A stretch of 64,000 nucleotides of DNA from an uncultured Candidatus Saccharibacteria bacterium. GTDB taxonomy: Bacteria > Patescibacteriota > Minisyncoccia > Minisyncoccales > MHMH01. Positions 2,860 to 49,969 of this stretch are shown piece after piece. Each line of letters starts with the position of its first letter. Within the stretch, counting starts at the first letter, position 1. The notes under the pieces were generated by a model. That model was not told the DNA's origin. It did not search any database and was given only the letters and a program-made list of their open reading frames with translations. Location: NCBI GenBank assembly GCA_964482335.1, contig CAYZXA010000001.1, forward strand, positions 24,983-88,982, read 5' to 3'. A program made the translations under genes and the position numbers.

Positions 2860-3549
2860 ATGGAAAATATAATTTTAAAAGTAAGAAATTTAAATGTTGA
2901 ATTGGCTGGAGAAAAGATCATTGAGAATTTAAACTTCGAAGTTAAGAAAAAGGAAACTTTAGTCATTTTAGGCCCAAACGGAGCGGGCAAGACTGTTTTA
3001 TTTAGGACTTTATTAGGCTTTCTGCCTTTTAAAGGAGAAATCCAATGGCAGCCAGAATTAAAAATTAGCTATGTTCCCACCGGACTTGCTTCGACCAAAG
3101 AGATTCCATTAACTATAAAAGAGTTTTTTGATTTAAAAGAAGTTACTCAAAAAGAAGCTATTAAAGTTTTAGAGACAGTTGGAATGACAAGTTCTAATAT
3201 TTTAGAAAAAAGAGTGGCTTTTCTTTCCTCAGGTCAATTTCAGCGACTTTTGGTGGCTTGGGGTCTGACCGGTAATCCTCAGGTTTTACTTTTTGATGAA
3301 CCCACGGCTGGAATTGATATTAAGGGTCAAGAATCTATTTATTTACTTTTAAATAAACTAAGAGATAAAAGAAAACTCACCATTTTATTAATTACACACG
3401 ATTTAAGTATTGTTTATAAACTTGCCGATTATGTTATTTGTTTAAATAAAAAGGCTTTATGTCAAGGTCCCGTCTTAGAAGTTTTAACTCCTCAACACCT
3501 GTCTCAACTTTATGGAGGGGAAATAAAGTTTTATCAACATAAACATTAA
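2860..3549 (+). CDS. metal (Zn/Mn-type) ABC transporter ATP-binding protein
   Basis: Walker A GPNGAGKT, signature LSSGQFQR and Walker B LLLFDEP. ZnuC-like size. Confidence 0.85.
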   Translation: MENIILKVRNLNVELAGEKIIENLNFEVKKKETLVILGPNGAGKTVLFRTLLGFLPFKGEIQWQPELKISYVPTGLASTKEIPLTIKEFFDLKEVTQKEAIKVLETVGMTSSNILEKRVAFLSSGQFQRLLVAWGLTGNPQVLLFDEPTAGIDIKGQESIYLLLNKLRDKRKLTILLITHDLSIVYKLADYVICLNKKALCQGPVLEVLTPQHLSQLYGGEIKFYQHKH

Positions 3550-3552
3550 TTA

Positions 3553-4320
3553 ATGGAAACTCAATTTATACTTAGTTTATTGGTGGGAATTTTTATTGGA
3601 GGGGCGGCGGGATATTTAGGATCCTTGATGGTTTCTAAGAGAATGGCTTTGGTGGGGGGAGCTTTGGGGCATTTAACCTTACCAGGAATTGCTTTGGCTC
3701 TCATTTATGGTTTTGATGTTTCTTTAGGAGCTTTACCTTTAGTAGTTTTGGGAATAATTTTGATATGGTTATTTGAAATTAGAACTAAATTACCAATGGA
3801 GGCCTTAACTGCCGTGGTTTTTGCTTTGGGAGTGGCCGTTGCCTTTTTGATTTTACCTTCAGAGAAAACTGTTACTGCTTTAATTGGTGATATTTCTCAA
3901 GTAGAGCTTTATGGGGCTATAATTTCTATAATTTTAGCTATAACTGTTTTTTTTGTAATTCGCAGAATTTTTTCAAAAATGGTTCTTTCCGGTATTTCTG
4001 AAGATTTAGCCAGAGTCCAGGGGGTAAATGTAAAAAAATATAATTTTATTTTTTTGATTTCAATTGCTGTCTTAGTTGCTTTAGGAGTGAAAATAGTTGG
4101 TGGTCTTTTAACTGCAGCACTCATCGCTATTCCCGCTTGTGCTGCTAGAAATGTTAGTCGAAATTTATTTCAATATTCCTACGGAGCATTGATTATTGGG
4201 GCAGTGAGCTGTATCTTTGGAATTTTACTTTCTAGATTGACTGGATTTTCAGTTGGTCCTTTGATTATTTTAACTGCTACTTTCTTTTTCTTAATCTCTT
4301 TAATATGGCAAAAAAAATAG
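3553..4320 (+). CDS. metal ABC transporter permease (ZnuB/ABC-3 family)
   Basis: Polytopic membrane protein directly after the ATPase, with ABC-3-like length and hydrophobic pattern. Confidence 0.8.
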   Translation: METQFILSLLVGIFIGGAAGYLGSLMVSKRMALVGGALGHLTLPGIALALIYGFDVSLGALPLVVLGIILIWLFEIRTKLPMEALTAVVFALGVAVAFLILPSEKTVTALIGDISQVELYGAIISIILAITVFFVIRRIFSKMVLSGISEDLARVQGVNVKKYNFIFLISIAVLVALGVKIVGGLLTAALIAIPACAARNVSRNLFQYSYGALIIGAVSCIFGILLSRLTGFSVGPLIILTATFFFLISLIWQKK

Positions 4321-23789: not shown

Positions 23790-25053
23790 AGTCATCCAAG
23801 TATTTAAGATTCGCGATCTTCGCAAAAAGATTCTTTTTGTTTTGGCTGTTTTTGTTGTTTTTAGGCTGATGGCCAATATTCCTATGCCCGGCATTGATAT
23901 TGAAAACCTCAAATCTTTCTTTGAGCAGTTTCAAATCTTTGGGCTTTTGAACCTCTTTACCGGTGGTACTTTGTCTAATCTATCAATTATTATGCTAGGT
24001 TTAGGTCCTTATATCACGGCCACCATTATTATGCAGTTATTGACCATGATTTTTCCTCCTTTGGAGCGCATGTATAAAGAAGAAGGCGAGGCTGGCCGTC
24101 AGAAGTTTAATCAGTACGGCAGACTTTTAACCGTGCCCTTAGCCATGATGCAGGGCTATGCTATGCTGACTTTGCTGCAAAAACAAGGAGCTATTGGCGC
24201 CCTTACCCTAACCACTATTCTTACCTCAGTCGTGACCGTGGCAGCTGGCTGTTTATTTTTAATGTGGTTGGGAGAGCTGATTACTGAAAGAGGTATTGGC
24301 AATGGTGTCAGCTTGTTGATTTTTGCTGGAATTATTGCTAGGGTCCCTCAAAGTATCAGAGAAACCCTGGTTAAGTGGGAGCCTTCTCAACTACCAGCTT
24401 ATTTGCTCTTCCTCGGCATGGCTTTGTTAATTATTTCTGGAGTTGTTATGATAAACGAAGGAAGAAGGAACATACCTGTTTCTTATGCTAAAAGAGTCAG
24501 GGGTATGAGAATGTATGGGGGTGTCTCTACCTATTTGCCTTTGAACGTTAACCCAGCAGGCGTTATACCGATTATCTTTGCTTTATCAATCATGCTTTTT
24601 CCTGGTATGGTTGCTAACTTCCTGTCAGGTGCTCCTGGCATGGTTGGTTCTGTTGCTCAGTATGTTGGTGACCTTTTTGAAAATGCCTGGGTTTACGGCA
24701 TCTTATACTTTCTTTTGGTCTGCCTTTTTACTTACTTTTATACGGCTGTTACCTTTGACCCCAAATCAATTTCTTCTAATCTGCAGAAAATGGGTGGCTT
24801 TGTGCCAGGTATCAGGCCAGGCGAATCAACAGCCAACTTCCTTCACTATATTCTAAATAGGGTTCTGCTGATTGGAGCTTTGTTTTTAGGCACGATAGCT
24901 GTTCTGCCTTCAATTATTGGCGGTGCTACTGGCATTACTGTCTTTTCTTTCTTGATTGGTGGTACGGCTTTGCTTATTACTGTTTCAGTTGTCTTGGAGA
25001 CAATGCGCCAAATCAATGCTCAATTACAAATGAGAGAATATGAAACGTTCTAA
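23773..25053 (+). CDS. secY: preprotein translocase subunit SecY
   Basis: Ten-TM SecY pattern (LGLGPYITATIIMQLL, GNGVSLLIF). Start chosen at MQWLNKV. Confidence 0.95.
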   Translation: MQWLNKVIQVFKIRDLRKKILFVLAVFVVFRLMANIPMPGIDIENLKSFFEQFQIFGLLNLFTGGTLSNLSIIMLGLGPYITATIIMQLLTMIFPPLERMYKEEGEAGRQKFNQYGRLLTVPLAMMQGYAMLTLLQKQGAIGALTLTTILTSVVTVAAGCLFLMWLGELITERGIGNGVSLLIFAGIIARVPQSIRETLVKWEPSQLPAYLLFLGMALLIISGVVMINEGRRNIPVSYAKRVRGMRMYGGVSTYLPLNVNPAGVIPIIFALSIMLFPGMVANFLSGAPGMVGSVAQYVGDLFENAWVYGILYFLLVCLFTYFYTAVTFDPKSISSNLQKMGGFVPGIRPGESTANFLHYILNRVLLIGALFLGTIAVLPSIIGGATGITVFSFLIGGTALLITVSVVLETMRQINAQLQMREYETF

Positions 25054-48780: not shown

Positions 48781-49053
48781 AGCGCCGTGGAGGAGTAGTA
48801 CCTCACCAGTCTCATAAATTTTTGTGACCTAAAATGGTAACATTTTATGGAAAAATTCCCGAAATTGCTGGGAACCCGTAAAAATATTTTATGGCAATCA
48901 GCAGCCAAGCTTCGACATTTTGTCGGAGAAGGTTCAGAGACTATAATGGGAACACCCTTTTATTTAAGGGAGATGGGATAGTCCGTTCCATTTGGAAACA
49001 AATGGCTAACACTAAAGAAGCTGGGGGCCCCCGTGCAATTCGGGGCGGCGCAA
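48781..49053 (+). tRNA. tRNA(CAU) gene interrupted by a group I intron (exons 48781-48815 and 49018-49053)
   Basis: The joined exons fold as a 71-nt cloverleaf. Acceptor AGCGCCG/CGGCGCA, D-arm GAGG-AGTAGTA-CCTC, anticodon arm CCAGT-CTCATAA-GCTGG, variable GGGC, T-arm CCCCG-TGCAATT-CGGGG. Confidence 0.75.
48816..49017 (+). mobile_element. group I intron, IC3-like (tRNA-type, Azoarcus/Anabaena-like core), 202 nt, no ORF
   Basis: Core strings TATGGCAA..GCAGCCAAGCTTCG and GAAGGTTCAGAGACTATAATGGG match remembered tRNA-intron cores. IGS TTGTGA (48822-48827) pairs with TCAT|AA. P2 has a GTAA loop. P7 is GACTAT/ATAGTC. P9 is CCATTTG-GAAA-CAAATGG. The terminal G is at 49017. Confidence 0.8.
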
Positions 49054-49066
49054 CAAAGATTCTATA

Positions 49067-49095
49067 TTGTCATATTTTTAGACCTACGGTATAAT
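49067..49095 (+). promoter_or_regulatory. putative promoter of the endonuclease-like ORF
   Basis: TTGTCA, 17 nt, TATAAT. The -10 sits in the loop of the GACCTAC/GTAGGTC hairpin (49081-49120) that abuts the ATG. Confidence 0.45.
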
Positions 49096-49121
49096 GAAAG
49101 AATACTTATAACTGTAGGTCC

Positions 49122-49832
49122 ATGGCTAGAATTATAGAAAAAAATAAAGCGCTAAGACTGCGCCAAAAAGGGAAAAGTATAAATGAAATTGCTAGAAGAT
49201 TAAAATTACCAAAAAGCACTGTTAGTGTTTGGTGTCGTGATATTAAACTTACTTCGGAACAGATCGGAAGATTAGCAAAAAGACAAAAATCTGGAAGTTA
49301 TAAAGGAAGAATGAAATTTTTAGAAAGAGTAAGAAAAAAAAGAATGGAAGAGATGATAAGATTGAGAAAGGAAGGAATTCAAGAGATTGGTAAGATAAAA
49401 AAAAGAGATTTATTTGTTGCTGGAATTGCAATGTATTGGAGCGAAGGAGTGACTTCTTCAAATAGCGATGAAGTAAGTTTTTCTAATTCAGACCCCAAAA
49501 TGCTTCTTTTGATGTTGAGATGGTTTAAAGAGATTTGTGGCGTATTAGATAACCAATTTGTTATTCAAATCAGAATCAATAAAATACATAAACAGAGAAT
49601 AAAAGAGATTGAAAATTATTGGTCTAATATAACAAAGATTTCATTAAGCCAATTTACTAAAACGATTTTAATAAAAAGTAAATTGAAGAAGATTTATCCT
49701 AAGACCGACGCTTATTACGGTACTCTAAGAATAAAAATTCGACGCGGTACTCAATTAAGAAGAAAGATTAATGGTTGGATTGAAGGATTGGCTAGGCGGG
49801 GTAGCTCAGTTGGTAGAGCAAAGGACTCATAA
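49122..49832 (+). CDS. free-standing HTH + LAGLIDADG-like homing endonuclease candidate
   Basis: N-terminal HTH (GKSINEIARRLKLPKSTVSVW). LFVAGIAMYWSEG helix followed by the EVSFSNSDPKMLLLMLRWFKEICGV beta-alpha pattern typical of single-motif LAGLIDADG enzymes. The last 38 nt are the 5' half of the next tRNA. Confidence 0.55.
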   Translation: MARIIEKNKALRLRQKGKSINEIARRLKLPKSTVSVWCRDIKLTSEQIGRLAKRQKSGSYKGRMKFLERVRKKRMEEMIRLRKEGIQEIGKIKKRDLFVAGIAMYWSEGVTSSNSDEVSFSNSDPKMLLLMLRWFKEICGVLDNQFVIQIRINKIHKQRIKEIENYWSNITKISLSQFTKTILIKSKLKKIYPKTDAYYGTLRIKIRRGTQLRRKINGWIEGLARRGSSVGRAKDS

Positions 49833-49867
49833 GCCTTAGGTCGTGGGTTCAAGTCCCACCCTCGCCA
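49795..49867 (+). tRNA. tRNA with anticodon CAT (elongator Met or lysidine-Ile2), canonical, no encoded CCA
   Basis: GGCGGGG-TA-GCTC-AGTTGGTA-GAGC-A-AAGGA-CTCATAA-GCCTT-AGGTC-GTGGG-TTCAAGT-CCCAC-CCTCGCC-A. Confidence 0.88.
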
Positions 49868-49892
49868 CATTAAAATTTTAATATTGAATTCT

Positions 49893-49969
49893 GGGGACGT
49901 AGCTCAATTGGTTAGAGCACATGCTTGTCGAGCATGGGGTTGCCGGTTCGAGTCCGGTCGTCCCCGCCA
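49893..49969 (+). tRNA. tRNA-Asp (GTC) with encoded CCA
   Basis: GGGGACG..CATGC-TTGTCGA-GCATG..GCCGG-TTCGAGT-CCGGT-CGTCCCC-G-CCA. Confidence 0.9.

Follow-up and report, generated by a model that had tools for sequence, protein, structure and literature searches.

The stretch of DNA analysed here (the window; 64,000 nt, positions 24,983 to 88,982 of contig CAYZXA010000001.1, assembly GCA_964482335.1) comes from an uncultured Candidatus Saccharibacteria bacterium. It contains an operon of tRNA-fMet, tRNA-Met and tRNA-Asp genes in which a group I intron interrupts the first tRNA and an open reading frame (ORF) of 236 amino acids (aa) lies between the first and the second. The protein combines a helix-turn-helix (HTH) with a LAGLIDADG-like domain. 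The ORF is probably a free-standing homing endonuclease gene (HEG) of a divergent, unannotated family, which forms a self-contained cassette in the spacer of this tRNA operon in Patescibacteria. This reading is based on the reality of the gene, the similarity of its domains, the anatomy of its insertion site, its distribution and decay among relatives and the covariation of a hairpin before its start codon, all of which are observed.

The ORF and its boundaries

The preliminary description of this DNA placed the ORF outside the intron, starting 69 nt past the last base of the interrupted tRNA, and had its last 12 codons overlap the following tRNA. The sequence and the ORF, tRNA and Rfam calls agree on each of these points (Table 1). 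A location inside the intron is ruled out, as a complete 3' exon stands upstream of the ORF. The conserved part of the ORF comprises aa 1-224 (49122-49793), and the final 12 codons are read-through into tRNA-Met. The overlap is 38 nt long, and the TAA stop codon (49830-49832) consists of T36, A37 and A38 of the anticodon loop. The preliminary description noted that this stop has the position of the intron in the upstream tRNA, which is a coincidence: a 95%-identical relative, like many others (including loci L002, L007, L171, L263, L266, L267 and L268), stops at a TAG formed by U8-A9-G10 of tRNA-Met. The junction of ORF and tRNA-Met in the window (49790-49832) is 5 nt shorter than in that relative, so that the TAG is out of frame and translation reaches the TAA of the anticodon loop. 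As the usual TAG is made of tRNA bases, the cassette abuts the tRNA tightly.

A search with the ORF yields 447 homologues (60-95% identity), of which almost all are 226-229 aa long. A family profile search finds 2059 proteins at E-values of 1e-10 or below, and 3730 representatives of 50%-identity clusters match at 1e-3 or below. Where homologues carry a source name, they come from Patescibacteria metagenome-assembled genomes (MAGs) or are unassigned, with the single exception of a MAG labelled Ignavibacteria. Family members are named "hypothetical", "HTH domain-containing", "XRE-family regulator", "HTH domain protein" or "transcriptional regulator" in the databases. The 95%-identical relative differs from the window ORF at 13 synonymous and 11 non-synonymous positions (ratio of non-synonymous to synonymous rates [dN/dS]: 0.20). 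Judged by these comparisons, the ORF is a real gene under purifying selection.

The HTH and LAGLIDADG-like domains

The N-terminal HTH (aa 2-37) is of the resolvase/homeodomain type (Pfam HTH_7, E-value: 5.8e-6, above the cut-off). In an AlphaFold2 model of the window protein (mean predicted local distance difference test score [pLDDT]: 87.6), a long helix (aa 58-89) is followed by an alpha/beta domain (aa 94-228). The combination of an HTH and a LAGLIDADG-like domain was proposed in the preliminary description, together with a Pfam search and the inspection of a structural model. The first half of the combination follows from the window protein itself and the second does not: searched alone against Pfam, NCBIfam and PHROGs, the protein matches the HTH and nothing else, without any Pfam LAGLIDADG model. 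Foldseek gives no significant match in PDB or BFVD, and neither phmmer nor a profile of the close family finds a nuclease in PDB. A 57-aa fragment of I-DmoI, used as a database query for the building of a LAGLIDADG profile, has zero matches.

The LAGLIDADG similarity comes from distant members of the family, and I-DmoI is reached only by profiles made from them. A profile of 131 such proteins has I-DmoI as its single nuclease match in PDB (E-value: 2.5e-4) and aligns LYWaEG...fNSD...W to the second I-DmoI motif, GLYVAEGDK. A profile of the C-terminal domain only matches I-DmoI as well (E-value: 3e-3), again as the sole nuclease in PDB, and hhalign supports the alignment of this domain with I-DmoI (P = 3.4e-5). 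LAGLIDADG_3 is the commonest Pfam family among the distant C-terminal domains (3 of 66, best E-value: 7e-4). In the motif, G-I-A-M-Y-W-S-E-G is aligned with K-G-L-Y-V-A-E-G of I-DmoI, such that Ala103 stands where the canonical motif has Gly and Glu108 falls on the Glu of the second motif, which we take to be the catalytic Glu117. This alignment removes the earlier worry that the motif helix is two residues too long. E108 and G109 do not vary among 121 close sequences or among 66 distant C-terminal domains, and are at least 90% conserved in the 131-sequence distant alignment. G101 and Y105 are also invariant, and N122 and D124 are invariant or nearly so.

The C-terminal domain is thus very likely to be homologous to LAGLIDADG proteins. 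Catalytic competence of the protein is plausible, and with its single LAGLIDADG-like domain it presumably acts as a homodimer. Four proteins of 504-576 aa (P0159, P0164, P0209 and P0218) each match the whole protein twice in tandem. Such proteins may be pseudo-dimers made by fusion, a parallel to the evolution of two-domain LAGLIDADG enzymes.

Insertion site and distribution

A metagenome scan keyed on a pattern in the 5' half of the tRNA, and so blind to both intron and ORF, returned 120 loci; the counts below are from the 83 with enough flanking sequence. (A pattern of 15 specified bases in the 3' exon lacked the specificity needed for such a scan when applied to viral contigs.) Most loci represent an empty site: the tRNA-fMet has no intron, tRNA-Met starts only 5-17 nt beyond it and tRNA-Asp comes next. 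Where the site is filled, a cassette of ~740 bp (promoter, hairpin and ORF) lies exactly in the spacer between tRNA-fMet and tRNA-Met. Presence or absence is thus polymorphic at one precise spacer, with 13 of the 83 loci (~16%) filled.

Eight of the sampled loci have both intron and ORF, two have the intron without the ORF, five have the ORF without the intron and 68 have neither. The link of the ORF to intron-containing tRNA loci, on which the preliminary description had staked its proposal, is strong (odds ratio 54, p = 1.3e-6 in a Fisher test that ignores phylogenetic non-independence). It is also asymmetric: the ORF is found in eight of ten intron-bearing loci, and the intron in eight of 13 ORF-bearing loci. 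Among 20 GTDB species genomes found via the protein, the intron-bearing tRNA adjoins the ORF or its remnant in 19. The tRNA is on the opposite strand in two of these, and one has the module of tRNA and ORF inverted relative to gatA. All 22 loci with ORFs at least 55% identical to that of the window carry the intron; at 40-52% identity, seven loci have it and six do not.

Within this intronless group, intact ORFs stand beside tRNA-fMet in L201, L215, L266, L267 and L268. The anticodon stem-loop of L201 and L268 (GAGGCCCATAACCTC) is the commonest type at ORF-free sites. The intron is seldom found without the ORF: the spacer is cleanly empty in L252, a GIY-YIG gene takes the place of the ORF in L217 and no more than a remnant of the ORF is left in L020. 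A tblastn search of phage genomes gives no match.

Two loci show family members in other settings. L017 has two paralogues in one rearranged tRNA cluster (1720-2409 on the minus strand and 3001-3666 on the plus strand), one directly upstream of tRNA-Met and the other divergent from an intron-bearing tRNA-fMet. In L019, from an Uhrbacteria genome, a 33%-identical member (3001-3669) lies directly upstream of tRNA-Gln (3682-3754), with neither tRNA-fMet nor an intron nearby. Members of the wider family may have targets at other tRNA loci.

Features that suggest a selfish element

When loci are ordered by the similarity of their GatA proteins, those with and those without the ORF are interleaved. 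L005 and L146 share 74% identity in GatA and 43% in the ORF, L003 and L013 share 57% and 71%, and L017 and L018 share 59% and 40%. The correlation between ORF and GatA identity is ~0 once two deep outliers are dropped; this discordance is one of pairwise identities alone, with no tree reconciliation.

Six degraded copies of the ORF are found beside intact tRNAs, with or without the intron (Table 1). Recoding of UGA or UAG as tryptophan in L015 and L160 is ruled out: the other tryptophan positions in these ORFs and loci read as tryptophan, two different codons are involved (TGA and TAG) and the reading frame of GatA is free of stops.

The same spacer harbours other nuclease genes. Stand-alone GIY-YIG genes of 84 aa (Pfam PF01541, E-values: 1e-18 to 1e-21) lie in or next to it in L215 (9142-9393), L008 (3695-3946) and L217 (2198-2428), with or without the HTH-LAGLIDADG ORF, and L221, L242 and L246 have such genes there too; tblastn gives matches in these three and in L209 and L244. 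L149 has a canonical two-motif LAGLIDADG_2 gene (PF03161, E-value: 2.2e-27; 235 aa) in a 722-nt spacer after an intronless tRNA-fMet that ends at 161. With at least three nuclease families at one spacer, this site is a hotspot for the insertion of nuclease genes.

Promoter and start-codon hairpin

The preliminary description gave the ORF its own promoter and a hairpin next to its start codon; both are present and conserved across loci, and the hairpin covaries. TTGTCA-17-TATAAT is the best promoter-like site of the region, with 11 of 12 consensus positions. The hairpin has the core GACCTAC/GTAGGTC, and its 3' arm ends 1 nt ahead of the ATG. Of 21 intact cassettes whose spacers are similar in length, 20 have this hairpin. 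Compensatory changes occur in eight of ten consensus pairs among 20 aligned loci, one column containing CG seven times, UA four, AU four, UG two and GU once. TATAAT is invariant in all 20 loci and stands in the hairpin loop directly after the 5' arm. Likeness of the 3' arm (CGTGGGTTC) to the T-arm of tRNA-Met is judged coincidental, as the arms covary freely.

Because the -10 box is inside the hairpin loop, transcripts from the cassette promoter would lack the 5' arm. Those that read through from the tRNA operon would carry the full hairpin, occluding the start region of the ORF. Only transcripts from the cassette promoter would be translatable, which would keep expression of the ORF low. From this geometry and the covariation, expression of the ORF appears to be gated by the hairpin. 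Similar control is known for I-TevI, I-TevII, I-TevIII and segB of T4 and for mobE of Aeh1, where host transcripts fold so as to prevent translation and translatable mRNA is made from an internal promoter (PMC2988022).

The interrupted tRNA-fMet and the flanking tRNAs

The intron matches RF00028 at 48803-49005 (91.8 bits, E-value: 1e-23). Its exact ends were read from the flanks: it starts after CAU and its last base is G. P1, as read by hand, pairs UCAU/AA with UUGUGA, with a U.G pair at the splice site. The insertion is placed between positions 36 and 37 because in all intron-bearing loci the final base of the intron is G and the 3' exon begins with AA.

When the exons are joined, ARAGORN folds a 72-nt cloverleaf tRNA(CAU) with an A1xA72 mismatch and A11:U24. 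Most tRNA-fMet orthologues (CGCGGGG...CCCCGCAA) have C1xA72 in place of A1xA72, and have G30-C40 and G31-C39 at the bottom of the anticodon stem where the window has only G30-C40 with U31.G39. L266 has a textbook tRNA-fMet at the orthologous position. With its 1x72 mismatch, A11:U24 and part of the stem G-C pairs, the interrupted tRNA appears to be an initiator tRNA.

Several features of these tRNAs are unusual. The T-loop of the clade's initiator-type tRNA is U-G-C-A-A-U-U, with G at position 55 where U or pseudouridine is normal (3' exon of the window; L002-L016 and L141-L260). Many orthologues have the anticodon loop CCCAUAA, with C at the normally invariant U33; that of the window is CUCAUAA. 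The tRNA-Met(CAU) just 3' of the ORF has an atypical D-arm (...GGGGAGTAGAATGGC.TCTAAGG...) in L009, L010, L013, L201, L267 and L268, and Rfam scores of 34-60 bits in L010, L013, L267 and L268, the four scored. This D-arm could be a lineage variation or a target-site variant.

Two features of public annotations are artefacts. A 44-aa "gene" is called inside the intron (window 48847-48981; L261 881-1015; L262 2726-2860; L263 1660-1794), and in some homologues the gene caller has extended the N-terminus by reading on through the 3' exon of the tRNA or the antisense strand of the intron.

Table 1. Features of the tRNA operon in the window and degraded ORF copies at related loci (positions are those of the window unless a locus is named).
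Feature	Position	Strand	Evidence or remark
5' exon of initiator-type tRNA(CAU), nt 1-36, anticodon CAU at end	48781-48815	+	Sequence reading, fold of joined exons
Group I intron, 202 nt, without ORF, between tRNA positions 36 and 37	48816-49017	+	Rfam RF00028
3' exon of tRNA-fMet, A37 to A73, T-loop UGCAAUU	49018-49053	+	Sequence, fold of joined exons
Cassette promoter, TTGTCA-17-TATAAT	49067-49095	+	11 of 12 consensus positions
Hairpin, arms 49081-49089 and 49112-49120, -10 box in loop	49081-49120	+	Minimum free energy -14.9 kcal/mol, covariation
HTH + LAGLIDADG-like ORF, 236 aa, ATG start	49122-49832	+	ORF call, homologues
N-terminal HTH, aa 2-37	49125-49232	+	Pfam HTH_7; long helix aa 58-89 follows
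Single LAGLIDADG-like domain, aa 94-224; motif helix DLFVAGIAMYWSEG at 49407-49448	49401-49793	+	
Elongator-type tRNA-Met(CAU), right-hand border of insert	49795-49868	+	ARAGORN, Rfam
tRNA-Asp(GUC), third in tRNA operon	49893-49969	+	ARAGORN, Rfam
Degraded ORF	L020 1697-1909		5' deletion, only aa 152/157-224 left
Degraded ORF	L254 873-1091		5' deletion, only aa 152/157-224 left
Degraded ORF	L161 733-1150		Truncated ORF
Degraded ORF	L015 3001-3672		TGA at codon 135, invariant W134
Degraded ORF	L160 2787-3173		TAG at codon 37, invariant W37
Degraded ORF	L211 3299-3655	-	ORF fragment

Proposed model

The model that we propose, in which nuclease activity, target site, co-conversion and regulation are predicted, has three steps. 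The protein would cut cassette-free alleles at or near the junction of tRNA-fMet and tRNA-Met. Repair from a cassette-bearing allele would then copy the cassette in. The HEG-less group I intron, which is only 36 bp away in the anticodon loop of tRNA-fMet, would be co-converted with the cassette and so spread by hitch-hiking (trans-homing). Such co-conversion is proposed as the reason why the intron is rarely found without the ORF and the ORF is often found without the intron. More broadly, and only tentatively, a Patescibacteria-restricted family of bipartite endonucleases (an HTH and a single LAGLIDADG-like domain), invisible to Pfam and comprising thousands of 50%-identity clusters, may colonise tRNA spacers in the form of free-standing selfish genes and mobilise neighbouring HEG-less tRNA introns in trans.

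Several points weigh against a mobile HEG. Cleavage and its target are predictions from sequence. None of the sampled locus pairs has near-identical cassettes in divergent hosts, so recent transfer is not directly shown, and the mean identity of the ORFs (52%) is below that of GatA (59%). Ancient presence, followed by repeated loss and lineage sorting, may account for the pattern instead of transfer. Crude pairwise identities of intron and ORF give no signal of co-phylogeny (rho 0.08), leaving long-term co-travel unsupported, and the association of the two comes from a test that treats related loci as independent.

Alternative explanations

Under strict collaborative homing, the nuclease would cut the intron-insertion site itself, the intron would confer immunity and both would spread as an obligate pair. 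Targeting of the insertion site defines this type of homing, which has precedents in two phage systems, one of them that of the endonuclease F-CphI of cyanophage S-PM2 (PMC3984707). The strong overall association of intron and ORF in our sample favours such a pair, and the reading stays compatible with the subfamily of the window, in which all 22 loci carry the intron. The F-CphI system involves a psbA intron, and the second system is that of a T3/T7-like phage. LAGLIDADG enzymes with a single domain act as homodimers, and such an enzyme would be suited by the anticodon arm, in which 17 bp form a natural pseudo-palindrome with its centre beside the 36/37 site. As a general rule, however, strict collaborative homing is disfavoured by the intact ORFs beside intronless tRNA-fMet. 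The hosts of L201 and L268 would cut themselves, because their anticodon stem-loop is the type most common at ORF-free sites. The intron is also retained where the ORF is missing (L217 and L252) or reduced to a remnant (L020). Of the likeness to collaborative homing drawn in the preliminary description, the adjacency of an ORF-less intron and a free-standing gene survives, but the intact ORFs at intronless alleles speak against targeting of the insertion site. Its further suggestion, a stage in the birth or decay of a mobile intron, is a speculative one. Strict collaborative homing is therefore unlikely.

A second alternative is a non-catalytic regulator of the tRNA operon or of its own promoter, with a degenerate LAGLIDADG domain and an HTH as in WhiA and with no role in mobility. 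WhiA is a conserved housekeeping regulator that has two LAGLIDADG domains and a C-terminal HTH and has lost the acidic residues of the motif, which are catalytic in the enzymes. The window protein shares the combination of domains, but it has one LAGLIDADG-like domain, an N-terminal HTH, an invariant motif Glu and a patchy distribution. Presence in ~16% of sampled loci and six decayed copies are unlike a core regulator, the free covariation of the hairpin arms points to structure and not to a conserved operator sequence, and unrelated nuclease genes occupy the same site. A WhiA-like role is considered very improbable.

About as little credit is due to a domesticated LAGLIDADG maturase, kept beside its substrate to help the tRNA-fMet intron fold and splice. 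LAGLIDADG proteins are established group I maturases (e.g. I-AniI and the bI3 maturase), and both the tight linkage to the intron and purifying selection would be expected of one. Efficient splicing would also matter, as the intron interrupts an apparent initiator tRNA. The ORF is nevertheless intact in several genomes with an intronless tRNA-fMet, and the intron persists where the ORF is absent, deleted, truncated or nonsense-bearing (L020, L161, L015, L217 and L252). Moreover, the HTH is a DNA-binding module and the motif Glu is invariant, although RNA chaperoning does not need this residue.

Least credible is that the C-terminal domain is an unrelated alpha/beta domain and the protein another kind of HTH protein, such as a relic of a transposase or recombinase accessory factor. 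A free-standing HEG remains the reading that we prefer.

Comparison with known systems

A close parallel to such a HEG is segB of T4, which is likewise a free-standing nuclease gene between two tRNA genes, with its own promoter and a hairpin that sequesters the start on read-through transcripts (PMC2988022). The target of SegB is the intergenic region of the tRNA genes (PMC2988022). The enzyme differs in being a GIY-YIG enzyme of a phage at a locus without an intron, whereas the window protein is an HTH and LAGLIDADG-like protein of a bacterial chromosome with predicted activity.

T4 mobE resembles the window gene in being a free-standing endonuclease gene beside an intron (that of nrdB) unable to move alone. 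Gene conversion initiated by MobE carries the neighbouring nrdB intron along (PMC2790892). The model proposed here favours this mechanism. MobE differs in that it is an HNH nickase, has a promoterless gene and acts between protein-coding genes of the phage; co-conversion at the window locus is suggested by co-occurrence only.

Single-domain LAGLIDADG enzymes are also known from rRNA introns of the same phylum (the candidate phyla radiation [CPR]). One of them, I-ShaI, forms homodimers and cuts its own insertion site (PMC11270868). The CPR enzymes are intron-encoded, match Pfam LAGLIDADG_1/2/3 and are ~180-210 aa long, and an HTH is not mentioned in the paper (PMC11270868). In contrast, the family described here is free-standing, escapes Pfam and is found in a tRNA operon, and its proteins begin with an HTH ahead of a long helix.

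Small ORF-less group I introns in the tRNA anticodon loops of Patescibacteria were described by Nakagawa et al. in 2026 (PMC13011429). Endonuclease genes were sought only inside introns >500 bp in that survey, and limited mobility was inferred (PMC13011429). Introns of tRNA-Met(CAU) were reported at 33/34 only, with neither the 36/37 intron of tRNA-fMet nor a neighbouring free-standing nuclease gene (PMC13011429). In the searchable literature, no description of the HTH-LAGLIDADG family or of its arrangement with tRNA spacer and intron was found.

Implications

Nearly all that is understood of free-standing homing endonucleases, and of the trans or collaborative homing of introns, comes from phages. 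The same parts are found here in a bacterial chromosome: the spacer between two tRNAs contains a nuclease gene, a promoter lies within a hairpin that would occlude the start codon and a HEG-less intron is adjacent. What is new is the trans or collaborative type of homing architecture in a cellular genome, together with the HTH-LAGLIDADG subfamily. Many lineages of Patescibacteria offer natural empty, filled and decayed alleles for comparison. A family of >2000 members with an unusual combination of HTH and LAGLIDADG-like domains, annotated so far as hypothetical proteins or regulators, can be flagged as probable site-specific nucleases, and a target within highly conserved tRNA genes, as predicted, could interest nuclease engineers.

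The arrangement qualifies the conclusion that tRNA introns of Patescibacteria are largely immobile, as the survey behind it looked inside introns only (PMC13011429), and it may explain how "immobile" introns spread. If the proposed model is correct, trans or collaborative homing would be known for the first time from a cellular genome and not from a phage, and this would account for the commonness and persistence of such introns in the tiny genomes of Patescibacteria. The tRNA-fMet/tRNA-Met junction would then be a homing hotspot for multiple nuclease families, where a mobile intron could arise by fusion of an intron with a nuclease gene.

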